Part shown: positions 23,216 through 60,919 of the stretch, piece by piece
Layout: each line of letters opens with the position of its first letter
How positions within the stretch are numbered: position 1 is the first letter of the stretch
IMG/VR virus record: IMGVR_UViG_3300026116_000035
From: a virus
Taxonomy: Duplodnaviria; Caudoviricetes
Direction: 5' to 3' (one strand)
DNA: 64,000 nucleotides
Position numbers and translations under genes: made by a program
Notes under the pieces: generated by a model
What the model was told of the DNA's origin: nothing
Seen by the model: only the letters and a program-made list of their open reading frames with translations
Databases searched by the model: none

Positions 23216-23275
23216 AGAATTAAAATGCGCAATGTTCGTGGCTCTATATTAAATAGATACTCTAATAAGGATATA

Positions 23276-24661
23276 ATGTCAGTAAAGAATGAAACAATAA
23301 AAATGGAACAAAACGAATTAGTCGATGATATTTCAAACGAAGAAATTAAAAAATCAAACGAAGAAGAAAATTTAAATGATGATGTGATGGCTCAATTAAA
23401 AGCAAAATTGGCAGCCAAAACAGAAAAAGCTGAGGAAAAAGTTATGACACCACGAATAGTAGAAAAGAAAAAGCGCAGTATTGATCTAGGAGTTGTAGCT
23501 TCTGGTCAGGCTGGCGGAAGAATTGCAGAAACTTTTAATACTCTAGGATATCCCGTTGTAGCTGTAAATACTGCCCAACAAGATTTAGAATTTTTAAATA
23601 TTGACGAATCTTGCAAACTCCATCTTCAATGGACTTTAGGTGGTACTGCAAAAGATCAAATTACCTCTAAGGATGCTACTGATAATAATATTGATTCAAT
23701 TCGTCAGATTATTGCAGAAAAATTAGATTCTTCAGTACACGGTTATATTTTTACTACATCTTTGGCTGGTGGTTCTGGTTCAGGTTCTGCCGAATCAATT
23801 ATCCAAATGATGCAGGAATTTGGAAAGCCTATTGTAGTTGTTGCCGTACTACCTCTTTCAAATGATGATGCTATTGGTAAAAATAATACTATTTCAGCTT
23901 TAGCTAAATTAACTTCTATGGCTCAAAATAAACAAATATCTAATTTAATTTTAGTTGATAATAGCCGAATTGAAACCATTTTTGCTGATGTTTCTCAAAT
24001 GGATTTCTTTAATGTTTCAAATTTAGCTATTGTGGATGGTTTAGATTCATTTAATAAATATAGTGCTCAGCCATCAAAAGTAAAGAGTTTTGATCCAATG
24101 GAATGGGCTACTGTACTTTTTTCATCTAATGGCATTTCTACTTATGGTTCTATCGATGTAGATAACGTTCAAGAACCTACAAGAATTGCTGAATCTGTTA
24201 TTGAGAGCTTATCTGGAGGATTATTGGCTAGTGGGTTTGATCTTAAACAAGCTAGTCATGTAGGTGTATTATTTGTTGGAAATGAAGAAACTATGAAATC
24301 AATTCCTAGCGCAAATATTAACTATGCTATGAGTATAATTAAAGAAACTAGTCCAAGTGCTACAGGAGTTTTTCGAGGCTTATATGAGGATGAATCAATT
24401 AAGCCTGGAATATTAAGAGTTTATTCTATTTTTGCTGGATTAGGATTGCCAACTGAACGTATTAATTCTTTACAAAAATCTGCTAAAGAAGAGATGGAAA
24501 AAACTAAGGGTAGAGATCAAAATAGAAATTTAACTCTTAAATTAGAAACTGGAGTTGAAGAAACAGCCTCTGCTGCTGATAAGGTACGTGAATTAATTAA
24601 GAGAAATAGTTCAACGTTTACTAAGAATTTTGTCGGTATTAAAGATTTTCGCAAGAAATGA
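23276..24661 (+). CDS. tubulin/FtsZ-family GTPase (PhuZ/TubZ-like)
   Basis: GVVASGQAGGRIAE, AVNTAQQDL, LGGTAKD, SLAGGSGSGS (GGGTGSG-like T4 loop), LVDN, FDPME (T7-like); start at ATG 23276 behind AAGGA. Confidence 0.85.
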   Translation: MSVKNETIKMEQNELVDDISNEEIKKSNEEENLNDDVMAQLKAKLAAKTEKAEEKVMTPRIVEKKKRSIDLGVVASGQAGGRIAETFNTLGYPVVAVNTAQQDLEFLNIDESCKLHLQWTLGGTAKDQITSKDATDNNIDSIRQIIAEKLDSSVHGYIFTTSLAGGSGSGSAESIIQMMQEFGKPIVVVAVLPLSNDDAIGKNNTISALAKLTSMAQNKQISNLILVDNSRIETIFADVSQMDFFNVSNLAIVDGLDSFNKYSAQPSKVKSFDPMEWATVLFSSNGISTYGSIDVDNVQEPTRIAESVIESLSGGLLASGFDLKQASHVGVLFVGNEETMKSIPSANINYAMSIIKETSPSATGVFRGLYEDESIKPGILRVYSIFAGLGLPTERINSLQKSAKEEMEKTKGRDQNRNLTLKLETGVEETASAADKVRELIKRNSSTFTKNFVGIKDFRKK

Positions 24662-34598: not shown

Positions 34599-36212
34599 AT
34601 GTTCGTAATTAAACGCGATGGATCCAAGGAACAAGTAAAGTTTGAAAAGGTAGCTAAAAGAATAACGAGAGTCGCCAAAGATCTTAAAAATGTTGATCCT
34701 AATGCTGTAGCTCAAAAAGTTATTCAGGGTATTTATGATGGCGTATCTACTGTAGAATTAGATAAACTTGCAATAGAAGTAGCATATTCTATGACCACTA
34801 TGCATTATGAATATGATCGATTAGCTGTTAGACTCGCTGTTTCAAATTTACATAAAAATACACCTTCTACTTTTTCTGAAGCTGTTGATAAAGTTTACAA
34901 TTCAGTTGATGTATTTGGAAATAAACGTCCATTAATAGCTGAAGATGTATATACTATAATTAAGAAAAATGCTCACATTCTGGATTCAAAAATTGATTAT
35001 GATCGGGATTATTTATTAGATTATTTTGGATTCAAAACATTAGAGCGATCTTATTTATTAAAGATAAATGAATATGTTGATAATAAATTAACACAAAAAA
35101 TCGCATTTCGGCCACAACATTTATGGATGATGGTTTCAGTTGGAATTCATAAAGAAGATATTGATGCCGCATTAGAAACATATGAAATTCTTTCTAAAAA
35201 AGAAGCTACACATGCAACTCCAACATTATTTAATGCAGGATTAATTAAAAATCAGCTCAGCAGTTGTTTTTTAATAGCAATGAATTCTTCCGATTCAATG
35301 GCTGGTATTTATGATACATTAAAACAAACTGCTTTAATAAGTCAAAGTGCCGGAGGAATTGGATTACACATTCATAATATAAGATCAAAAGGATCTCCAA
35401 TATTTGGCACAGGAGGATTATCAAATGGTATAATTCCTATGTTAAAAAACTTTAATGAAACTGCGCGTTATGTTGATCAGGGCGGGAAAAGGAAAGGCTC
35501 ATTTGCCATATACTTAGAGAGCTGGCATTCCGATATCTTTGAATTTTTAGATTTACGTAAAAATAATGGTAAAGAAGAATTTCGTGCAAGAGATTTAAAT
35601 CTTGCTTTATGGGCTCCTGATTTATTTTTCAAACGAGTAAAAGAAGATGGAAAATGGACATTAATGGACCCAGCTAAATGTAAAAATCTTTCCGATGTTC
35701 ATAGTGAAGAATTTGACAAATTATATATTCAATATGAACAAAACAATATGGGTGAAAAAACAATTAATGCACGTGATCTTTGGAGTAAGATTGTTGAAGC
35801 ACAAATTGAAACTGGTCAACCATATATTTTAGCAAAAGATGCTTGTAATAATAAATCAAATCAAAAAAATCTTGGTACAATTAAGAGCAGTAATCTTTGT
35901 ATAGCTGGTGATACATCTGTTTTTATTAAAACCTCATTAGTGGATGATGAAATTGAACTTCCAATTAATAACGTTGTTAACATGTTTAAAAATGGAGAAA
36001 AATTATTTATCAAATCATATGATGAAATAAATGATAAAATTACTTTCAATGAAATATTAAACGGTGCAGAAACAAATCGTGAAGCTGAAGTTTTAAAAAT
36101 TACTTACAATGATTATGAAATAGTTTGTACCGAAGATCATGAATTTTTCACCACAAGAGGTTACGTAAAAGCCAAAAATTTATTGGAAACAGATATTTTA
36201 AAATTAATTTAA
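34599..36212 (+). CDS. nrdA: ribonucleotide reductase alpha subunit, N-terminal fragment fused to N-intein
   Basis: ATP cone [55 protein letters not shown], ending [10 protein letters not shown] then intein. Confidence 0.93.
35898..36209 (+). mobile_element. N-terminal half of a naturally split intein (104 aa)
   Basis: Begins [10 protein letters not shown] (block A) immediately after SSNL; contains [19 protein letters not shown] (block B, TxxH); ends at the stop codon. Confidence 0.92.
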
Positions 36213-36222
36213 TTGGAATTTA

Positions 36223-37335
36223 ATGATAGAAAAAGAAAATGAAGAAAAAATAAAACAAAATAAATTTTATTGTGAGTTTGATTCAAAATTTTATAATCGC
36301 ATACAAATGGTAAAATTATTAAAAATAAATGTAGACATGTTTAATTATTATTTTAATAAATTATCATTAGAATTACAAAATGAAGTAATTAAAAGTAATG
36401 ATTATAAATATAAATATTTATATAGAATTATATCTAATAAAATCATATATTGTATTTATTCTAATAAATTAATTCCATTTGAAAGAGTTCTTAGAGGATG
36501 CATAACATTTTCAGATGTTGAAAGTTTATGGGGTAAAGGAATATCAACACGAAATAAAAAAAGACCCGAACATGCTAAAATAATTTCTCTTAAGCTTAAA
36601 GGTGTTAAAAAATCTAATGAACACCGTAATAAAATGACTCAAAGATTAAAATCTATAGATTTTAAAAAAAAAGTACTGTCTAATAAAGGAATTGAATATA
36701 CGGATGATTCTTCTGTATATGAAAAATATGCCGCCCTGTATTCTAATTTATTAAAATCGTTTGATTTTAAAAAATCATTTGTTTTAAATAATTATAAATT
36801 ATATTTAGAAGATACAGAATTAACTCATGAAGAAATTAATCAAATGAGTGAAACTGAAATTTTAAATTTATATTCTGAATTAATGTCAATAAAAAGTTCT
36901 ATAGCTATGGCTAATTCAACTTCAATGGGGAATGCCAAAATAGTTAAAATTGAAAATTTACAATATAATTTAAGAAATATAAATTCAATTGATGTTAGAT
37001 CTGAAATGGAAAAGAAAATAATTTCTTTTTTTGAACGTAATAAAATTTATTGGGATTATGAAACTGAAATTATAAAATATTTTTTTAATTTTAATAGAAG
37101 ATATATTATGGATTTTATATTTTATATTGATGGTAAATGTAATTATATGGAAGTAAAAGGTTCGGTTAGAAGTAGTGATGTTGAAAAAACATTAGCAAAA
37201 ACCAAAACAGCAATTGAAAAATTTGGTGAAATATATGTTTATCAAAAAGAATTAATTACGTCGATAAAAGATTTAGATAAAATTAAATATAATAATTTTT
37301 CAGAATTTAAGTTAAAACACGTATATGGAGATTGA
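36223..37335 (+). CDS. free-standing putative homing endonuclease (NUMOD3-like repeats plus a C-terminal PD-(D/E)xK-like domain)
   Basis: KKRPEHAKIISLKLKGVKKSNEHRNKM; C-terminal VRSEMEKK...WDYE...YIMDF...YMEVKG; lies exactly between the two nrdA halves. Confidence 0.72.
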   Translation: MIEKENEEKIKQNKFYCEFDSKFYNRIQMVKLLKINVDMFNYYFNKLSLELQNEVIKSNDYKYKYLYRIISNKIIYCIYSNKLIPFERVLRGCITFSDVESLWGKGISTRNKKRPEHAKIISLKLKGVKKSNEHRNKMTQRLKSIDFKKKVLSNKGIEYTDDSSVYEKYAALYSNLLKSFDFKKSFVLNNYKLYLEDTELTHEEINQMSETEILNLYSELMSIKSSIAMANSTSMGNAKIVKIENLQYNLRNINSIDVRSEMEKKIISFFERNKIYWDYETEIIKYFFNFNRRYIMDFIFYIDGKCNYMEVKGSVRSSDVEKTLAKTKTAIEKFGEIYVYQKELITSIKDLDKIKYNNFSEFKLKHVYGD

Positions 37336-37434
37336 ATGTTAAAAATAGAAAAATTGTCACAAAAAATTCCGGTATATGATTTAACTGTTAAAGATAATCA
37401 TAATTTTTTTGCTAATAAGATTTTGGTTCATAAT
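37336..37434 (+). mobile_element. C-terminal half of the split intein (33 aa)
   Basis: MLKIEKL...VYDLTVKDNHNFFANKILVHN followed by Cys+1 (blocks F/G, terminal His-Asn). Confidence 0.93.
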
Positions 37435-38523
37435 TGCGCCGAAATAATTGAATATTCTGATGATCAATCAACCGCAGTATGTAATTTAGCATCTATCTCA
37501 CTACCTTCTTGCGTTGAAGGTAAAAAATATAAACGAACATTTAATTTTCAAAAACTATATGATATTACTTATCAATTAACTATAAATTTAAATAAAGTTA
37601 TAGACATAGAATATTATCCTGTTGAAGAAGCTAAATATTCTAATTTAAAAAATAGACCTATCGGTATTGGTATTCAGGGTTTAGCTGATGTTTTTGCTTT
37701 GATGCGATTAACCTGGGATAGCAAAGAAGCTTTAATATTAAATCAGCATATAGCTGAAACAATGTATTATGCTTCGTTAAATGCTTCTGCAGATCTGGCT
37801 AAAAAAGATGGTCCTTATGAATCTTATTCTGGATCACCATTAAGTGAAGGTATTTTTCAATTTGATTTATGGAATACTAAACCTACATTGGAAACATGGG
37901 ATTGGGATAAATTAAAGAAAAAAATTAAAAAATATGGTGTTCGGAATTCGCTGTTATTAGCTAACATGCCAACAGCTTCTACGTCTAATATACTTGGTAA
38001 TACCGAATGTTTTGAACCAATTACTTCCAATATTTATACGCGCCAAACATTAAGTGGTGAATTTGTACAAGTAAATAAATATTTGCTAGAAGATTTAATT
38101 GAATTAGGATTATGGAATGATACACTTAAGCAAAAAATTATAGCTTCAAATGGATCAATTCAAAACATTGCTGAAATTCCAGATGATATTAAATTATTAT
38201 ATAAGACTGTTTGGGAAATATCTCAAAAAATAATAATTGATATGGCAGCTGCTCGCGGTCCTTTTATTTGTCAGTCACAAAGCATGAACCTTTATATTAA
38301 AGAAGCAAATACTGCTAAGGTTACCTCTGCAATATTTTATGCTTGGGAAAAAGGATTAAAAACTTTGGTGTATTATTTAAGAACTACAGCTGCACGCGAA
38401 GCTGCTAAATTTACTGTTGATAAAGAAATTGAAAATCAAGTATTAGAAGCTAATCAGGCACTTATTGAAGGTGTAGCATGTTCATTAGATAATCCAGAAT
38501 CTTGTGAAATGTGTTCTGGTTGA
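37336..38523 (+). CDS. nrdA: C-intein fused to the C-terminal fragment of ribonucleotide reductase alpha
   Basis: After the intein: CAEII, VCNLAS, RPIGIGIQGLAD, GVRNSLLLANMPTASTS, QSQSMN, GLKTLVYYLR, terminal C-x-C-E-M-C-S-G redox cysteines. Confidence 0.93.
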   Translation: MLKIEKLSQKIPVYDLTVKDNHNFFANKILVHNCAEIIEYSDDQSTAVCNLASISLPSCVEGKKYKRTFNFQKLYDITYQLTINLNKVIDIEYYPVEEAKYSNLKNRPIGIGIQGLADVFALMRLTWDSKEALILNQHIAETMYYASLNASADLAKKDGPYESYSGSPLSEGIFQFDLWNTKPTLETWDWDKLKKKIKKYGVRNSLLLANMPTASTSNILGNTECFEPITSNIYTRQTLSGEFVQVNKYLLEDLIELGLWNDTLKQKIIASNGSIQNIAEIPDDIKLLYKTVWEISQKIIIDMAAARGPFICQSQSMNLYIKEANTAKVTSAIFYAWEKGLKTLVYYLRTTAAREAAKFTVDKEIENQVLEANQALIEGVACSLDNPESCEMCSG

Positions 38524-53116: not shown

Positions 53117-54325
53117 ATGGACAAGTATGATATTGGAATAATTGGAGCAGGAATTGCCGGAACTTTTGCTGCATTAAAAGCCGCTGAATCTTATAATGCC
53201 AAAGTAATATTATTTGAATTAGGTCATAAACCTGGAAAACGAAGACGATTTTTAGAAGGTTTTTTAGGTTGTTTTCCTACTGGTGATGGAAAAATATATA
53301 CAGATACTAATCAAATTTTAGAGTATGTAGATGGTAGAACTGTAAAATCAGCTAGTAATTGGGTTATGAAACAATTTGATTCAATTGTTAAAAATAAAAT
53401 AATTAAAGATAAATTACCTAGTGCAGCACTTCAAAAAAAATTAACTGCAGCGAATATTAATATTTCTACAAATGATTATATTCAATGGAAACCAGAAAGC
53501 ATTCATCTATTATCAAAGCAAGTAACGGAAATTATTGAATCTTCTGGAAATATTACTTTTAGTTTTGATAATGAAGTTACTAAAGTTACTAAAGAGAAAA
53601 ATGGTTTTATTATTTCCACCGCTTCTGAAGGTGAAATATTTGCTAAAAAAATAATAATTAGTGTAGGTAGAAGTGGTTGGAGGTGGGTTAATACTTTATA
53701 TAAAGATTTTGGGTTAACAATAAAAGATGATATTGCTTCTTATGGAATATATTTAGAATGTCCTGCAAATCAATTAAAAGAATTAAATCATTCTCATTGT
53801 ACATTGAGTCGTTCAGATTTTGAATTAGGACCATTTAATTGGAGTGGCACAATAATTCCAGAAGATCATGCTGACTTAGTTATTGCTGCATTTAGATCAA
53901 ATGAAGATCGTTGGAAATCTGACAAAGTTTCATTTTCATTAATTGGTCATAGAAAAGTAAATGATGGGGATGGAATTTATCAAGCGGATAGATTGGCAAA
54001 ATTAGCTTATTTATTATTTAACGATAGAATTGGTAAAGAAAAAATTAAATTAATTACAAAAAATAATTCACCTTTATCACAATTACCAGAATATGATTGG
54101 TTAAATGAAACTATAAATGAATTGAATACATTATTTCCATTTTTAATATCTAAGGGATCTTTTCATGCTCCAAATATATTACCATTAGCTGCACCAATTA
54201 GAATAGGACCGAATTTAGAAACTGAAATTGAAGATATGTTTGTAGCGGGAGAAAGTGGAAGATTTCGAGGAATATCAGCTGCAGCAATTTCTGGAACAAT
54301 TGCTATAGAGAATGCATGTAAATAA
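53117..54325 (+). CDS. FAD/NAD(P)-dependent oxidoreductase
   Basis: IGIIGAGIAG (GxGxxG), FELG, GDGK, ISVGRSG, FVAGES...GISAAAISG. Confidence 0.8.
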   Translation: MDKYDIGIIGAGIAGTFAALKAAESYNAKVILFELGHKPGKRRRFLEGFLGCFPTGDGKIYTDTNQILEYVDGRTVKSASNWVMKQFDSIVKNKIIKDKLPSAALQKKLTAANINISTNDYIQWKPESIHLLSKQVTEIIESSGNITFSFDNEVTKVTKEKNGFIISTASEGEIFAKKIIISVGRSGWRWVNTLYKDFGLTIKDDIASYGIYLECPANQLKELNHSHCTLSRSDFELGPFNWSGTIIPEDHADLVIAAFRSNEDRWKSDKVSFSLIGHRKVNDGDGIYQADRLAKLAYLLFNDRIGKEKIKLITKNNSPLSQLPEYDWLNETINELNTLFPFLISKGSFHAPNILPLAAPIRIGPNLETEIEDMFVAGESGRFRGISAAAISGTIAIENACK

Positions 54326-54334
54326 GGAAATATT

Positions 54335-54667
54335 ATGGAAAAATATGAAGATGATACAGTTTCTTATTCAGATGGACAACAAAAATATTTTAATGCCGCT
54401 TTGAAATATAATAATGAATTTTATAAAGACGAGGATAATATTCAGCAAAAAGTAATTAATGTAAAGCGAACAAAATTAAGAAAAGGTGAAGATTGGGAAA
54501 TATTAGAGAATAAAAAAGTGGTTCTAATTTTAAAAGGTGTAAGGTTTAATAATAAAGAAAAAGAATATTTTAGAACGATTGAAGGTATTAAATTTATAAT
54601 GGATGGATATAAAAATGGGTGGGATTCAATATTAAAATTTAAAATCGAGCTGAGGAAAATTTTATGA
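54335..54667 (+). CDS. hypothetical protein
   Basis: 110-aa ORF with AAGGA SD. Confidence 0.6.
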   Translation: MEKYEDDTVSYSDGQQKYFNAALKYNNEFYKDEDNIQQKVINVKRTKLRKGEDWEILENKKVVLILKGVRFNNKEKEYFRTIEGIKFIMDGYKNGWDSILKFKIELRKIL

Positions 54668-54861
54668 TTATATTTGATGGCATTATTCCAAAACCAGGAC
54701 AGATGGCAATATTACGATTTAAAAATGAGAATAATATTACAATCGATATACCCATAGATAAATTTGCAGCAGATCGTATTTCTTTATATTTAACAAAATT
54801 GTCTGGATTAGGAAATTCTGTCGAGCGAGGAAATATTGAAAACTTAGAAAACTCTGAATAA
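54664..54861 (+). CDS. hypothetical protein
   Basis: 65-aa ORF, ATGA-coupled. Confidence 0.55.
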   Translation: MIIFDGIIPKPGQMAILRFKNENNITIDIPIDKFAADRISLYLTKLSGLGNSVERGNIENLENSE

Positions 54862-54875
54862 GGAGTTTTTAAAAT

Positions 54876-55526
54876 ATGACTGAAGGTTACGTAATATATA
54901 TTTCTGACGTTGAATCTACTGGTTTAAATAAAGAAGAAAACGAAATTATAGAATTATCCATGCTACGGCTTTTTTTAGATGGGTCTAGAGAAGATGAACA
55001 AAAAACTTGGCTAGTTCGAGCTTTAAAACCAGAAACGATTACAGAAGAATCATTAAAAATTAACGGTCACAAGCGAGAAGATATTTTATGTATGACGAAA
55101 TTTGGTCAAGAAAATTATTTGCATCCAGAAATTGTACTTCCACAAGTAGAGAACTGGATCGCTGAAGACGATATGACTTCTTCTGAGAGAGTTTTGGGTG
55201 GGCAAAATATAAAATTTGATTTCGATATGATGGAAGAAACTTGGAAAAGATTTAATTCTATAGGTACTTTTCCTTTTCAAACTGGTCACAATAGACTAAC
55301 TGTAGATACAAAAGAATTAGCTTTATTTATTGATATAATTGCTGGTAAAAGAAGAAAGTTTTATAATTTAGGATCATTGGTAAAGGACTATGGTATTAAA
55401 AAAGAAAAAGCCCATAGAGCTGATGCAGACGTTAGAATGACTAAAGATTTATTAGTTAAACAAATCAGTATATTTAAAAAAGTAATACAAGAAAGTAAAT
55501 TAGATATTTTTCCAAAAGATGAATGA
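54876..55526 (+). CDS. DEDDh 3'-5' exonuclease (DnaQ/Pol III epsilon-like)
   Basis: SDVESTG (ExoI), GQNIKFDF (ExoII), AHRADADV (ExoIII). Confidence 0.88.
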   Translation: MTEGYVIYISDVESTGLNKEENEIIELSMLRLFLDGSREDEQKTWLVRALKPETITEESLKINGHKREDILCMTKFGQENYLHPEIVLPQVENWIAEDDMTSSERVLGGQNIKFDFDMMEETWKRFNSIGTFPFQTGHNRLTVDTKELALFIDIIAGKRRKFYNLGSLVKDYGIKKEKAHRADADVRMTKDLLVKQISIFKKVIQESKLDIFPKDE

Positions 55527-56395
55527 ATATTATATATAGTGCAGGAAATAGAATAGGTGCAAATAATCAATTATTAAGATTTTTAGAAAATACTAATCAT
55601 AATATAAAAATTGCCGCATATATATCTTCTAGTTATTCTATCCCCCATGTAGATTGGATTTTAAATGCTGTTCATATAAATAATTATCCTTTTGTAGAAG
55701 ATTTAGAATCAATTAGAAATAATCAAAATGTAGTTGAATTACTTTTAAATGATGTGTTTAAATTTAAACCAAATTTGATTATATCAGATTCAGAACATAT
55801 TTTAGTTTATATAGCTAAAAGATTAGAAATTCCTGTATGGTATTGCAGTCCTTTGAATTTAATTGAAGCTATAAATTGGAAGAAGCCGTTAATTTATGAT
55901 TATTTATTTAATCAATATAAAAACAAATTACCGAAAGCAGATAAATATTTAATTTATTCATCATTTTGTGATATCTTAAATCCACCTGAAATAAAAGAAA
56001 ATTATACTTGGATTCGTCCTTATTATACTGAGCCTACAAAAGTCTGTATAGATGAAAATAGCAGAAGAATTATATTTAATAATATATTGAGATATATAGA
56101 TTTAAATGATTATAGTTTTACTGATGGCAATACCAATAGTATATCTAATTTATTTTATCATAATAAAAAAATTATTATAAGTCCAAATGCTAAAAATTTA
56201 GAAGCTTTAGTTAATTCAGTATTAATTGAACAATATAAAATTGGACATAACGTAGGTCAAATAGAATTAATGGGAAATAGGGCTGTTGATGCTTTAGAAG
56301 ATTTTACATATAAAGAATGTAAAAATATAGAATTAAATAATAGCAATCATTTACAATTACACGAATATATTGAGGAACATGCATATAGCTTTTGA
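55523..56395 (+). CDS. divergent GT-B-like protein
   Basis: MNIIYS, KPNLIISDSE, FTDG...IIISP resemble GT28/MJ1255-like proteins; weak. Confidence 0.4.
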   Translation: MNIIYSAGNRIGANNQLLRFLENTNHNIKIAAYISSSYSIPHVDWILNAVHINNYPFVEDLESIRNNQNVVELLLNDVFKFKPNLIISDSEHILVYIAKRLEIPVWYCSPLNLIEAINWKKPLIYDYLFNQYKNKLPKADKYLIYSSFCDILNPPEIKENYTWIRPYYTEPTKVCIDENSRRIIFNNILRYIDLNDYSFTDGNTNSISNLFYHNKKIIISPNAKNLEALVNSVLIEQYKIGHNVGQIELMGNRAVDALEDFTYKECKNIELNNSNHLQLHEYIEEHAYSF

Positions 56396-57023
56396 TTTAG
56401 GCAATGTAATATTTAATTATGATTTAGATAATTTTATTAAACAAATACGATCACACGATGATGCAAGAAAAATATTTCCTAATTATAATGAAGCTAAAAT
56501 TTTCGTTCAAGAATCAGAACATTTAAGTTATATTGGTGCTACAACTTTATATAAAAGATTATCTCATAAATTTTCACATTTATCTGAAGATAATAAAATA
56601 AGTATTATTAATACATGGAATAATATTATTTATCCAGATCAAAGAATGTTAGATTTTATAGAAGAATTAAAAAAAGAAAATGTTAAAATTGCTTTATTAA
56701 GCAATATGGGATTAGAACATGCCGAATATTTACGAAATAAATATCCTGAAGTATTTGATGTTGAGGCTATTCATTTAAGTTATGAAGTTGGAGCTTTTAA
56801 ACCAACTAAATTATTTTATCAAAGTTTTTTATTAGAATATCCAGATTTTTCAGAATGCGTTTATCTAGATGATTTAGAAGAGAATATTTTAATGGGTTCA
56901 AGATTTAAATTTAATAGTGTTTTATTTGATCTTAAAAAATTATCGCAAGAGTCAGAAAAGAATTTTAAATTAAATTTAGATAAAATTAAAAATCAAGTTT
57001 TACAAGGTGCATTGACATTATAA
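56379..57023 (+). CDS. HAD family phosphatase (YihX-like)
   Basis: AFDLGNVI, LLSN, SYEVGAFKP, YLDDLEEN. Confidence 0.82.
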   Translation: MHIAFDLGNVIFNYDLDNFIKQIRSHDDARKIFPNYNEAKIFVQESEHLSYIGATTLYKRLSHKFSHLSEDNKISIINTWNNIIYPDQRMLDFIEELKKENVKIALLSNMGLEHAEYLRNKYPEVFDVEAIHLSYEVGAFKPTKLFYQSFLLEYPDFSECVYLDDLEENILMGSRFKFNSVLFDLKKLSQESEKNFKLNLDKIKNQVLQGALTL

Positions 57024-57124
57024 TTTAATTTGATTATATTTAAATACGTATCAATAATGTTACTTATAATTTCTATGTTTTAAACAATTTTCGAGGTTTT
57101 AGTTTTGACAATATATATTTGTTT

Positions 57125-57328
57125 ATGACTGAAAAATCATTAAAAAAAGCAGATCTCGAAATTGCACTAAATGGCATGGTAGCTGATGGAACTTTATTTG
57201 CTTCTTGCCCAAATTGTAAACAGCATTTAAATTATAATGAATATTGTTTAAGACGTTGTAATCAGTGCAAAAAAATAAAGTTTGAAGATATAACGTACAT
57301 AACTGGCGCTAAAAAAGATAACAATTGA
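57125..57328 (+). CDS. small zinc-ribbon protein
   Basis: CPNC...CNQC. Confidence 0.6.
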   Translation: MTEKSLKKADLEIALNGMVADGTLFASCPNCKQHLNYNEYCLRRCNQCKKIKFEDITYITGAKKDNN

Positions 57329-57338
57329 GAATATAAGA

Positions 57339-58862
57339 ATGCCTGAAAAAACTCAAGACCAACCACTATTAAAAACTGGCGAATATAAAGTAACACGAGT
57401 TATTGAATTGAGTTTTTTTGATTTAACTGGTGAAAAAGCGAAAACTTCTGGATCTTCTAATAAATTCTATAAATTAGAAGAACATATATCTTTAAATGAC
57501 TCTAGAGCTCAATTATATAGTATGTGGGGAGCTGTAGGTGGTCATTTAAATGAAGATTATCGTCATTATAATACCCATGAAAAAGCTGCTAAAGAATTTG
57601 ATTCTATTATAAAATCTAAGAAGAGAAAAGGTTATCAAGAAATAGATTTAGCGATTAGGGCTCATGGCTCAGATGAAGCTAAACAAATAATTAAACCAGT
57701 TGCTCTTTTAAATGTAGATAGTAATTTAAAATCAAAGAATAGTACCTTACATATAGAAACACAAAAATTAATTGTAAATTTAATGGGAGCAACTAATACG
57801 TTCGTTGCTCAAACATTACGTTGTCCACTTGGGCAACTTTCAAATTTACAGATAAATCACGGGCGAGATAAATTAAATCAAGCTAAAGATATTATTAATA
57901 AATATCCTGGAAAGTCAATTCCTGATAATTCAAATGATTCTAAAAAAATATTAGAATTAACAAATGATTTTTATAGCTTAATTCCTCATAATTTAGGTTC
58001 TGGATCGCGTGGAAAAATGGATCATTTATTATTAAATGATCTTAACAAAGTTGTACAAAAAGAATCCGATTTAGATACTTTATTAGATGCTAAGTCTATT
58101 GGTGCAGTTTTAAAATCTGATTCTAATGTAGATGATCAGTATGATACATTAAATGCTGATTTTACATATATTGATAACCAAGATCCTATATTTAAATATT
58201 TGGAAAATTACTTTCATAATTCCGCTAATTCAAGGCATGGATTTAATAGCGTAAAAGTAAAAAATATTTGGGCGGTTGAAAGAAGAGATTCAGAAAAAGA
58301 TTATTTATTAAAAAATATATCTAAAATTGCTAAAGAATGTGGCAAGCATACCTTTGAAAAAGAGGCTGCAGCTTTAGCTAAAAACCCAGCTCAATGGAGT
58401 CCAGCAAAACGATTAGATATGGATATAGAATTACAAAAAGAATATAATAAAGCTAATGTCTGGTTATGTTGGCATGGTACACGAAGTGCAAATGTTGTTG
58501 GTATTACTAAACGTGGTTTAATGATCAGACCTGCTGGAGCTATTCATACTGGAAGTCTAATGGGAGATGGAAAATATTTCGCTTGGCAGAGTACTAAATC
58601 TTTAAATTATTGTGATAATGGATATTGGACTGGTAAAAATAATAGTAATACTAATTCTCGCTACATGTTTATGTTAGATGTTGCATTAGGTAATATGCAT
58701 GTAGCCTCTGGTCCACATTTTTATAAATCGGCTCCTAAAGGCTTTCATTCAGTTTATGGCAAAGCTAATGTTTCAGGAGTTTTGAATGATGAAATGATTA
58801 CTTATGATTTTGAAGCAAAAGATACGCAGTCTCGCATTAGATATCTATTAGAAATAGTATAA
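57339..58862 (+). CDS. PARP-like ADP-ribosyltransferase with WGR-like, helical regulatory and catalytic domains
   Basis: SNKFY...YSMWGAVG...EFDSIIKSKKRKGY (WGR-like); LPLGQLS-like CPLGQLS and LTNDFYSLIPH (regulatory domain); WHGTR, GDGKYFA, STKSLNY, DEMITYD (H-Y-E triad). Confidence 0.88.
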   Translation: MPEKTQDQPLLKTGEYKVTRVIELSFFDLTGEKAKTSGSSNKFYKLEEHISLNDSRAQLYSMWGAVGGHLNEDYRHYNTHEKAAKEFDSIIKSKKRKGYQEIDLAIRAHGSDEAKQIIKPVALLNVDSNLKSKNSTLHIETQKLIVNLMGATNTFVAQTLRCPLGQLSNLQINHGRDKLNQAKDIINKYPGKSIPDNSNDSKKILELTNDFYSLIPHNLGSGSRGKMDHLLLNDLNKVVQKESDLDTLLDAKSIGAVLKSDSNVDDQYDTLNADFTYIDNQDPIFKYLENYFHNSANSRHGFNSVKVKNIWAVERRDSEKDYLLKNISKIAKECGKHTFEKEAAALAKNPAQWSPAKRLDMDIELQKEYNKANVWLCWHGTRSANVVGITKRGLMIRPAGAIHTGSLMGDGKYFAWQSTKSLNYCDNGYWTGKNNSNTNSRYMFMLDVALGNMHVASGPHFYKSAPKGFHSVYGKANVSGVLNDEMITYDFEAKDTQSRIRYLLEIV

Positions 58863-58893
58863 AATATATTTGTTTGTTAATTTGAGGAAAATA

Positions 58894-59130
58894 ATGAATA
58901 ATTTTTTAAAATGTATATTGTTACTTGGATTAACATCAAGTTGTTTATCAAAAGAAGATTTGTCTTCCTTAAAAAGGAATAAAATTATCTTCGAACAAAA
59001 AATGGAAATAAAGCCAAGTTCAGTTAATTGTTTTATTCATGTGGATATATATGAATGTTCTGGAATTACAAATGCAGGATTTCCTATAATGTATTCCTGT
59101 ACAACAACAATATGTACTATGGATAAATGA
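58894..59130 (+). CDS. small Cys-rich secreted/lipoprotein-like protein
   Basis: MNNFLKCILLLGLTSSC signal peptide with a lipobox-like Cys; start at ATG 58894 behind GAGG. Confidence 0.5.
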   Translation: MNNFLKCILLLGLTSSCLSKEDLSSLKRNKIIFEQKMEIKPSSVNCFIHVDIYECSGITNAGFPIMYSCTTTICTMDK

Positions 59131-59798: not shown

Positions 59799-59830
59799 TT
59801 AAATATTAAATTTCTTAGTTCGAGCAGTTG

Positions 59831-59866
59831 AAGGTCGATCAATATAAAAATTGGTCGGCCTTTTTT
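59831..59866 (+). terminator. rho-independent terminator
   Basis: 13-bp stem AAGGTCGATCAAT / ATTGGTCGGCCTT with two G-U pairs, followed by a T run. Confidence 0.8.
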
Positions 59867-59890
59867 ATTATTAAGGCCCAAGGAGTTATA

Positions 59891-60919
59891 ATGGTTTTAA
59901 ATGTTCGTAAAGGTCTTACATTTGACGATGTTTTGCTTGTCCCAAAATATTCTACAATTGATAGTCGTAAAAATATAGATGTATCAGTTGATCTTGGAAA
60001 GGGAGTTAAATTATCTATACCTATTATTTCAGCTAATATGAAAAATATTACTGAATTAAATATGGCTTTAAAAATTGCTGAAATGGGAGGGTTGGCAATA
60101 TTACATAGATTTTATGATAATCCTTTACATGATCAACTTAGTGTTTTTTATGAAGTTATCAAAGTTAATCCTAAATATATAAATCATGTTGGTGTCTCTA
60201 TTGGTGTTCAAGATAGTGACTTTGAACAAGTTTGTGAATTTGTTCAACACGGTATTAAAATAATTTGTTTAGATATAGCTCATGCTCATAGTGCAGCTGC
60301 CGGTGAAATGGTATCCAAAATTAAAGCTAACTATCCAAATGTATTATTAATTGCCGGTAATGTTTCAACGGCAGAAGCATTTACATTTTTAGCAAAAGCA
60401 GGAGCGGATGTAATAAAATCTGGAGTTGGTGCAGGTTCAATTTGCACTACACGTATTGAAACAGGTAATGGTGTTCCGCAATTAACTGCATTATCTGAAT
60501 GTTATCAAGTTATGGATAGAATATTCCCTAACGTAAAAATCATTGCTGATGGTGGTATAAAAGCTGCCGGAGATCTTACTAAATGTTTATGTTTTTCTCA
60601 TGCCGTTATGTTAGGTAATTTATTAGCTGGTACTGATGAAGCTCCAGGTGAAACTACTTATATTGATGGTAAATCTTATAAATCATATAATGGCAGTTCT
60701 ACATTTAAAAAAGATCATATTGAAGGAGTTTCGGCCCTAGTTCCTATAAAAGGTCCCGTAGAAAATGTAATAAATAAATTATTACAAGGTTTAAAATCAG
60801 GATGTAGTTATCAAGGTGTAGATAATCTTCAAGACTTAAAAGAATATCCTGAATTTATTTCAGTAACTAATGCTGGATTGATTGAATCACGTGCTCATGA
60901 TGTTATTGTTGTAAAATAG
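59891..60919 (+). CDS. IMP dehydrogenase / GMP reductase family protein (no CBS domains)
   Basis: [62 protein letters not shown]; true start ATG 59891 behind AGGAG. Confidence 0.9.

Follow-up and report, generated by a model that had tools for sequence, protein, structure and literature searches.

A megaphage PARP with an intact catalytic core and no WGR-motif arginine: a putative ADP-ribosyltransferase with a possibly rewired switch

The 64,000-nucleotide stretch of viral DNA analyzed here (hereafter the window; Duplodnaviria, Caudoviricetes; IMG/VR record IMGVR_UViG_3300026116_000035) encodes a poly(ADP-ribose) polymerase (PARP) in which a WGR domain, a helical regulatory domain (HD) and an ADP-ribosyltransferase (ART) catalytic domain follow one another. 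The protein and its close relatives carry the catalytic residues of this enzyme family but lack the WGR-motif arginine that is indispensable for DNA-dependent activation of PARP1, PARP2 and PARP3, and we lean towards the view that it is an HD-gated enzyme with an altered switch. A first-pass annotation, made from the letters alone, had proposed both an open reading frame (ORF) for a PARP at 57339-58862 and its WGR-regulatory-catalytic architecture. The frame proved exact from ATG to stop, at 507 aa, and all three domains scored above their Pfam cut-offs. The features of the gene are as follows:

57339..58862, plus strand: PARP gene (P0001), 507 aa, ATG to stop with the stop codon included; intact ORF with Pfam, PDB and fold matches
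57372..57650, plus strand: WGR domain, residues 12-104; Pfam WGR at residues 32-102, aligned with the WGR domains of PARP1 and PARP3
57525-57533, plus strand: WGR motif W63-G64-A65, with alanine in place of the motif arginine
57651..57743, plus strand: basic linker, residues 105-135; predicted local distance difference test (pLDDT) 41-60, family median net charge +2
57744..58154, plus strand: HD, residues 136-272; Pfam PARP_reg, with PLGQL and LDTLLD aligned with the PARP1 HD
57996-58013, plus strand: clade-specific HD loop G220-x-G222-x-R224-G225, found only in sequences without the WGR arginine
58155..58859, plus strand: ART catalytic domain, residues 273-507; Pfam PARP, with invariant catalytic residues
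58305..58454, plus strand: helical ART insert of about 50 aa, residues 323-372; a gap in PARP1 alignments and absent from PARP1/2/3
58473-58475, plus strand: H379
58575-58577, plus strand: Y413
58785-58787, plus strand: N483
58791-58793, plus strand: E485

Pfam placed the WGR domain at 38.5 bits (cut-off 22), the regulatory domain PARP_reg at residues 157-273 with 52.4 bits (cut-off 26.8), and the PARP catalytic domain at residues 285-479 with 76 bits (cut-off 26.7). Pfam and structural alignment both put the HD directly N-terminal to the ART domain and the WGR domain N-terminal to the HD. In a sequence search of the PDB, the best solved relatives were catalytic and WGR-CAT fragments of PARP1 (E 1.5e-24 with the single protein and 1e-42 with a family profile), while residues 1-135 used as a query returned the PARP3 WGR domain (2eoc) as the sole match, a weak one (E 0.026). 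An AlphaFold2 model built from 30 relatives (mean pLDDT 81; predicted template modeling score, pTM, 0.71) aligned over residues 12-507 with the DNA-break-bound WGR-CAT structure of human PARP1 (4dqy_C; VIA Z 24.4, 382 residues). The N-terminal domains, on whose identity the first-pass annotation had staked its proposal, were matched by the structure search from model residue 12 onward. Comparisons with the catalytic fragments of PARP1/2/3/4 gave Z 23-26, these structural alignments beginning at model residue 131-137. Two alignments disagreed on whether Tyr99 is the equivalent of PARP2 Y201 and PARP1 F638.

The catalytic core was surveyed in an alignment of 247 PARP relatives, comprising 121 close relatives and 126 more distant representatives. 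Equivalent residues are given in human PARP1 numbering; the alignments were computed. The motifs that the first-pass annotation had named (WHGTR, GDGKYFA, STKSLNY, DEMITYD, FYSLIPH and WGAVG) were present and aligned as claimed, as was the asparagine at the position of PARP1 Y986. Specifically, WHGTR contains H379 (PARP1 H862), GDGKYFA contains Y413 (Y896), STKSLNY contains K420 and Y424 (K903 and Y907), and NDEMITYD contains E485 (E988) with N483 at Y986, while FYSLIPH of the HD corresponds to FYTLIPH in PARP1 and WGAVG to WGRVG. H379, G380, Y413, K420 and E485 were invariant in the 121 close relatives and Y424 was kept in 120 of these; taken together, the H-Y-E residues, K420, S421 and Y424 were kept in 119-121 of the 121. 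The Pfam match stops at residue 479, and the C-terminal strand with E485 aligned with PARP1, PARP4 and tankyrase; in an hhalign comparison with an insect PARP1, N-D-E lay opposite Y-N-E, with E485 on the catalytic glutamate. The HD core motifs PLGQL and LDTLLD were likewise invariant in the family and aligned with the PARP1 HD. Moreover, mean column identity was similar across the WGR, HD and ART domains (0.57-0.77), so that no domain looks vestigial.

On the acceptor side, the asparagine at Y986, which the first-pass annotation had pointed out, is no peculiarity of this gene: it was the commonest state in the more distant, mostly short PARPs (94/126). Tyrosine occupied this position in only eight rows, among which were several long sequences and an insect PARP1. 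Before the catalytic glutamate, the acceptor-side loop lacks about 27 residues that PARP1 has, in a tankyrase/PARP4-like manner. Neither the asparagine nor the short acceptor loop is special to this gene, most of the more distant PARPs having both. The K903 equivalent, K420, is invariant, while the Y986 equivalent is Asn483 and the acceptor loop is short; because of the latter two, synthesis of long or branched polymer would not be assured. Tankyrases make polymer, and PARP3 and PARP4 are mono-transferases.

The most distinctive trait of the family lies in the WGR motif. Its third residue was proline in 97, alanine in 22, serine in one and glutamine in one of the 121 close relatives, with arginine in 0/121, and was arginine in 119 of the 126 more distant PARPs. 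Substitution of this residue (R591A in PARP1, R140A in PARP2, R103A in PARP3) abolishes DNA-dependent activity and leaves basal activity unaffected (PMC4081085), and loss of DNA-dependent activation has been described for WGR arginine mutants that include PARP2 R140A/R153A (PMC4081085, PMC6294510). In bacterial PARPs, G58 and R59 have the top coevolution scores (cumulative mutual information, cMI) among WGR positions (PMC5966428). WGAVG is a variant of WGRVG, as the first-pass annotation had it, but one that has lost the arginine needed for DNA-dependent activation in PARP1/2/3. Other elements of the domain are retained, namely the aromatic residue 63, K42 and Y44, which align with the PARP3 WGR domain.

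Two further traits accompany the missing arginine. Residues 218-225 of the HD form a glycine-rich loop, N-L-G-x-G-x-R-G, with an invariant arginine in the clade without the WGR arginine (hereafter Arg-less); the G-x-G-x-R-G loop was found in 123 sequences, all without the WGR arginine, and in 0/119 arginine-bearing sequences. The ART insert, 43-54 aa long, was present in 121/121 close relatives and in 20 more distant representatives. It lies between the strand preceding the catalytic histidine and the WHG motif, and was modeled as helical with pLDDT 90-96.

In a FastTree phylogeny of sampled tips with Shimodaira-Hasegawa-like (SH-like) support, the Arg-less sequences near the window's PARP formed one clade (23 sampled tips, support 100). 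This clade falls inside a larger one of 41 tips (support 98), all of it insert-bearing, in which the outer members carry Y/W-G-R. From this nesting, the insert was acquired first, followed by loss of the arginine and gain of the HD loop together. Located members of the insert-bearing clade were on large viral contigs, and Tyr-986-type sequences, including insect PARP1, were placed elsewhere in the tree. The description of the protein as eukaryote-like consequently stands for its architecture but not for its descent, which is within the viral insert-bearing clade and away from the Tyr-986-type sequences.

Relatives at 48-69% identity fell into at least 120 clusters, all of about 500 aa and with the same three domains, many of them on contigs of 50-230 kb. 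Among 1.84 billion representatives, 34 matches were below 1e-30; at 1e-10 the number rose to 1090, and this larger set consisted mostly of 400-470-aa proteins that aligned in two pieces. An alignment-based scan of IMG/VR recovered relatives on contigs of 200-480 kb, several of which are rated complete; a scan of IMG/VR with the single protein, unlike the alignment-based one, gave no matches, and megablast of 15 kb against GenBank phages gave none either. A 25-mer from the end of the window had no exact match in the metagenome or viral contigs. A pattern scan of prokaryotes, with one genome for each of 185,579 species, found one relative only, on a 2.8-kb contig of a metagenome-assembled genome (MAG). 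Because of this single prokaryote match, the subfamily appears to be virus-only as far as seen.

The novelty implied for a PARP in a phage was not upheld. In GenBank, Klebsiella phage vB_KpM_FBKp34 has a protein annotated as poly [ADP-ribose] polymerase with WGR, regulatory and catalytic domains, and a PARP with the same three domains is annotated in Xanthomonas jumbo phage XacN1. Phage PARPs were listed by Perina et al. 2014 (PMC4245714); Iyer et al. described PARPs in jumbo phages, with XacN1 BBA65562.1 as an example (PMC7824862), and in later work found the PARP family to be one of the most frequent among viral ARTs (PMC9503650); and a 2024 survey termed jumbo-phage PARPs 'DNA damage sensors' (PMC11662467). 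The terms 'phage PARP', 'phage-encoded PARP' and 'bacteriophage PARP' were not found in the literature searched. Three-domain phage PARPs are therefore known already, by annotation and from surveys, and what is new here is a virus-only Arg-less subfamily with an HD loop, an ART insert and a paired zinc-ribbon gene. The last of these and a promoter-like site lie directly upstream:

57119..57328, plus strand: four-cysteine zinc-ribbon ORF, 69 aa from TTG or 67 aa from ATG at 57125, ending 10 nt 5′ of the PARP start
57012..57040, plus strand: best sigma-70-like site, TTGACA, 17 nt, TATATT, with 11/12 matches, in the 96-nt gap before the zinc-ribbon ORF

Homologues of the zinc-ribbon ORF in six related loci end 2-17 nt upstream of the PARP start and share four invariant cysteines and one invariant glycine; in one further locus the copy is frameshifted, and in another the spot is occupied by a different CxxC ORF. 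The family comprised 16 clusters, has no Pfam family, and is fast-evolving (18-35% identity where the PARPs are 52-60% identical). No such gene was found beside the Arg-retaining PARPs that were examined. Complex prediction with PARP, the zinc-ribbon protein and Zn scored 0.00 in two runs without controls, a result that speaks neither for nor against binding. We regard the zinc-ribbon protein as a candidate partner of the PARP. The position of the best promoter-like site weakly suggests that the two genes form a unit; the count of sigma-70-like sites in the region was not above that in shuffles, and it is the position of the best site alone that is suggestive.

In 12/17 related loci the gene order was shared, and ran FAD-oxidoreductase (GidA-like), small ORF, RNase T, glycosyltransferase-like, HAD, PARP, GMP reductase and (ThyX). 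The upstream block at 53117-57023 of the window, consisting of a GidA/TrmFO-like FAD oxidoreductase (402 aa), a 110-aa ORF, RNase T, a glycosyltransferase-like protein and HAD, was conserved in at least 50 IMG/VR loci (numbered L033-L085), whether PARP was present or not. In one relative a dCMP deaminase precedes it, and the block may be a nucleotide- or DNA-modification module. The upstream block was followed by 9 kb or more of sequence in 46 megaphage loci; PARP was present at the site in nine of these, and the idea that it is a universal core gene at this site was rejected. Of five complete genomes without PARP at the site, four have a PARP of about 500 aa with the WGR arginine elsewhere; one complete 452-kb genome with no PARP at the site had none elsewhere either. 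A macrodomain gene lies 63 nt from the Arg-retaining copy in one genome and 3 kb from it in another, and in a third genome the copy is directly 5′ of a pyrimidine-dimer DNA glycosylase gene.

Several observations concern the PARP gene's immediate surroundings. In IMGVR_UViG_3300027740_000003 (435 kb), a syntenic 226-aa ORF (L018:10115-10795) corresponds to PARP residues 232-507 and is an ART by Pfam; without the WGR domain and most of the HD, it would be either a truncated remnant or an ungated enzyme. In six related loci a gene resembling a mobile insertion lies directly 3′ of PARP: Pfam identifies two as LAGLIDADG homing endonucleases (L004:11577-12563 and L005:11545-12345), and four encode proteins of about 525 aa with 6-9 CxxC motifs (L007:11449-13023, L009:11407-12984, L010:11389-12969 and L017:11494-13038), so the PARP 3′ end may be a landing site for mobile endonuclease genes. 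In the window itself, PARP is followed by an 86-aa ORF (58870-59130) that starts with a signal-peptide and lipobox-like stretch ending in Cys and had no Pfam match and no counterpart in the related loci. Within 59828-59900, a strong terminator-like hairpin at 59830-59863 (14 pairs, then a T run) may end the PARP-containing transcript. It covers the TTG that is listed as the start of the GMP reductase ORF; the Pfam match of this ORF starts at residue 29, implying that the true start is probably an ATG about 60 nt downstream.

The window as a whole is AT-rich (19-39% G+C), with almost every ORF of at least 100 aa on the plus strand and tightly packed. It encodes a TubZ/tubulin-like protein, UvsW-like and DnaB-like helicases, a sigma factor, a class I ribonucleotide reductase (RNR) and two very large proteins with weak matches to phage virion families, alongside an RNase T-type exonuclease, a glycosyltransferase-like protein, a HAD hydrolase, GMP reductase and ThyX; no tRNA genes were found in the 64 kb. 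Its DNA occurs in rhizosphere and soil metagenome sequencing runs, one of which may be the source sample, with no RNA run among the runs listed as containing it. The PARP is thus a gene of a soil/rhizosphere megaphage. A eukaryotic or giant-virus origin of the window was rejected on the basis of gene packing, the single coding strand and the DnaB, UvsW, sigma, RNR and virion matches, and is also countered by IMG/VR relatives with terminal repeats, which point to a tailed megaphage. The tubulin/TubZ-like protein (23225-24661; Pfam Tubulin plus a TubZ-like C-terminal domain) lies beside the UvsW-like helicase, an arrangement shared with phages in which a tubulin spindle positions the DNA. The RNR large subunit (34599-38523) is split over three consecutive ORFs, the first combining the N-terminal part of RNR with the beginning of an intein splicing domain (34599-36212), the second of 370 aa with no Pfam match (36223-37335), and the third with the end of the intein splicing domain and the C-terminal part of RNR (37336-38523), an arrangement that looks like an intein with its middle cut by stops, a split intein or an inserted gene.

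A search for PARG or macrodomain partners, which the first-pass annotation had suggested, had a divided outcome, with nothing in the window but candidates in its relatives. Pfam scans found no macrodomain, PARG or ARH in the window. Macrodomain-like genes were present in 10/10 related phage records examined; five of these genes, in four records, were above the Pfam Macro cut-off and the others were weaker Pfam or protein-search matches. On three contigs, the Arg-less PARP is followed 11-20 kb downstream by a macrodomain of 170-190 aa, whose closest resemblance is to BT1257, SCO6735 and TARG1. Bacterial-type PARG (PF10021) was found in 0/5 related records, and ARH in one of the five tested. A complete 459-kb relative (IMGVR_UViG_3300028920_000022; G003) has an NAD/ADP-ribose gene cluster at about 382-409 kb, within 26 kb, in which the Arg-less PARP (382.6-384.1 kb) is accompanied at about 397 kb by another PARP, of 472 aa and lacking a WGR motif, and further by NAMPT at 401 kb, an ADP-ribosylglycohydrolase at 403 kb and a macrodomain at 408 kb. 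Two other loci (L001:12285-14227 and L008:12545-13663) have a 367-372-aa cytidylyltransferase-like protein, of NMNAT-type fold, 2.3-2.5 kb downstream of PARP; an ATP-grasp protein comes next in L001, and a link to nucleotide or NAD metabolism may exist.

We consider it somewhat more probable than its negation that the protein is a catalytically competent, HD-gated H-Y-E ADP-ribosyltransferase with a switch rewired relative to PARP1/2/3, where activity, gating, trigger, targets and chain length are all inferred; the data show the domain architecture, the fold, the catalytic residues, the changes specific to the subfamily and the synteny. An active, HD-gated enzyme is suggested because the core is intact, the degree of conservation of the WGR domain and HD is close to that of the core, and the HD motifs are invariant; gating would be most likely because the WGR domain and the autoinhibitory HD are both retained. 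Removal of the HD renders PARP1 hyperactive (PMC8150716). In such an enzyme the HD would hold catalysis off until a signal read at the N-terminus switched it on, whereupon the enzyme would use NAD+ and ADP-ribosylate itself and other proteins, the mark being removed by macrodomain hydrolases. Since the coupling arginine is absent, the gate cannot work exactly as in PARP1/2/3, and coupling between the WGR domain and the HD would differ from theirs; R224 in the HD loop, the ART insert and the zinc-ribbon protein are candidates for the rewired part. The trigger might be a nucleic-acid end, a partner protein or something else. A nucleic-acid signal is plausible, given the retention of aromatic 63, K42 and Y44 and the mildly basic character of the WGR domain and linker.

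Several points weigh against this rewired, HD-gated enzyme. Loss of the arginine and gain of the loop are a single event in one clade, and their co-occurrence is a lead and not proof of compensation. Three Arg-less loci (L002/L003, L009 and L010) have no zinc-ribbon gene beside PARP. The H-Y-E residues are insufficient for polymer synthesis, and in its short acceptor loop the protein resembles tankyrase and PARP4. A tblastn search with three macrodomain types from relatives found no macrodomain, nor was a second PARP found, in the 64-kb window. The literature searched contained no assay of a phage PARP. A more specific form of the reading, in which the WGR arginine coupling has been replaced by the arginine-bearing HD loop together with a separately encoded zinc-ribbon subunit, the latter acting in trans like the zinc fingers of PARP1 and the signal being not a simple DNA break but something such as a DNA structure specific to the phage or an event in host defence, is speculative, and we think it rather improbable as a whole.

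The first-pass annotation had favored a DNA-end-sensing switch, which is weakened by the absence of the WGR arginine in 121/121 close relatives, given the mutant data (PMC4081085, PMC6294510). In its full form, a canonical PARP1/2/3-like sensor would bind nicks or ends through its WGR domain, its HD would unfold, and poly(ADP-ribose) would mark phage DNA or recruit its repair. The complete WGR-HD-ART module and fold, the retained WGR aromatic, K42 and Y44, and the placement of the gene among replication and nucleotide-metabolism genes all agree with such a sensor, as do the DNA requirement for activation of the bacterial Herpetosiphon PARP (PMC4245714, PMC8120803) and the Arg-retaining paralogue that adjoins a pyrimidine-dimer DNA glycosylase gene in one related genome. 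However, the residue whose mutation removes DNA-dependent activity in PARP1, PARP2 and PARP3 is missing, the position of PARP2 N127, which pairs with that arginine, appears opposite Ser/Thr in a by-eye reading of the alignments, and, with asparagine at Y986 and a short acceptor loop, long or branched polymer would not be assured. A PARP1-like DNA-break switch is doubtful because the arginine has been lost across the subfamily, and we hold the canonical sensor to be possible but unlikely. Alternatively, the enzyme might serve host takeover or counter-defence by ADP-ribosylating host RNA polymerase, translation or defence factors, or by draining NAD+, with the WGR domain and HD used for targeting or timing and not for damage sensing, a role with a parallel in T4 Alt/ModA/ModB, which have a different fold. 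This role has been proposed for phage ARTs and PARPs in jumbo-phage surveys (PMC7824862), and would sit well with the virus-only distribution of the family by our scans and with the ART-only, HD-less version in L018, expected to be ungated; yet the gene lies in a nucleotide-metabolism and replication block and not among early or injected proteins, the HD and WGR domain are as conserved as the catalytic core, and no target is known, so that we rate the takeover role as unlikely.

A further alternative is that the enzyme modifies nucleic acid, capping phosphorylated DNA or RNA ends and thereby protecting or marking phage genome ends or replication intermediates. PARP1-3 can ADP-ribosylate DNA ends in vitro and so provide a precedent. 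The glycosyltransferase-like, HAD and ThyX-like neighbors (with dCMP deaminase in relatives) hint at base or nucleotide modification, and the relatives have TARG1-like macrodomains, which fall in the same broad group as DarG, a macrodomain that removes ADP-ribose from DNA. The same neighbors are, however, found in many relatives without PARP at the site, and end capping seems to us very improbable. The loss of the WGR arginine and the divergence of the C-terminal part from the Pfam profile, the match ending at 479, could be read as signs of an inactive remnant or pseudo-enzyme that serves as a binding module only. Against this stand the intact frame, the retention of the H-Y-E residues, K420, S421 and Y424 across the close relatives, and the alignment of the E485 strand with PARP1, PARP4 and tankyrase, and we give inactivity hardly any credence.

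PARP allostery, in which a DNA break engages the WGR domain, the HD unfolds and NAD+ gains access, is a central and drug-relevant mechanism. To our knowledge, studies of it have so far been confined to eukaryotic enzymes and two from bacteria. A large and well-conserved viral subfamily with all of the domains and catalytic residues but without the arginine indispensable in PARP1/2/3 offers a direct test of how general the mechanism is and of what can take its place. If the two-component switch were true, PARPs would be regulated in a way that is new for them, and nature would have provided an experiment on their allostery. The subfamily also bears on the role of NAD+ and ADP-ribose chemistry in huge phages, whose PARPs surveys have called 'DNA damage sensors'. 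It is not a new kind of system, because phage PARPs of the same architecture are on record.

Compared with human PARP1/2/3 (4DQY chain C, 6X0L, 2EOC), the phage protein has the same three domains in the same order and fold, with the H-Y-E residues, the K903 and Y907 equivalents and the HD core, but is only about 22-31% identical and lacks zinc fingers, BRCT and the N-terminal tail. Its WGR arginine is alanine (proline in most relatives), it has the extra HD loop and the 50-aa ART insert, and relative to PARP1 it is short of about 27 acceptor-loop residues and has asparagine for Y986. The bacterial PARPs that are active in vitro, from Herpetosiphon aurantiacus and Clostridioides difficile CD160, are likewise short, stand-alone WGR-HD-ART proteins without zinc fingers (PMC5966428, PMC8120803); they keep Y/W-G-R (PMC5966428), whereas the phage subfamily is without the arginine and with the ART insert.

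Among phages, the PARPs of cultured isolates, namely FBKp34 (QQV91759.1; WGR, regulatory and catalytic domains), XacN1 (BBA65562.1) and Cellulophaga phages phi4:1 and phi17:2, resemble that of the window in being phage-encoded, and XacN1 in addition has a GMP reductase gene about 4.6 kb from its PARP. They differ in being 24-30% identical to it, in keeping F/Y-G-R, in having neither the ART insert nor the HD loop, and in belonging to other lineages and neighborhoods. The Arg-retaining (YGR) paralogues of related megaphages (L110-L113, L012 and L014-L017) are closer, coming from the same phage group, at about 490-500 aa, 35-39% identity and with the same ART insert, but they keep the WGR arginine, have no HD loop and no upstream zinc-ribbon gene, and occupy other genome positions. 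T4 Alt, ModA and ModB are also phage-encoded NAD+-dependent ADP-ribosyltransferases, but are mono-transferases of the R-S-E clade without WGR or HD (PMC9503650), whereas the window protein has H-Y-E and matches the PARP Pfam families and does not belong with the R-S-E, T4 Alt/Mod-type enzymes. With its H-Y-E ART domain, HD and WGR fold, it has the domain hallmarks of ARTD clade 1, the DNA-dependent PARPs, but not the arginine of the WGR motif.

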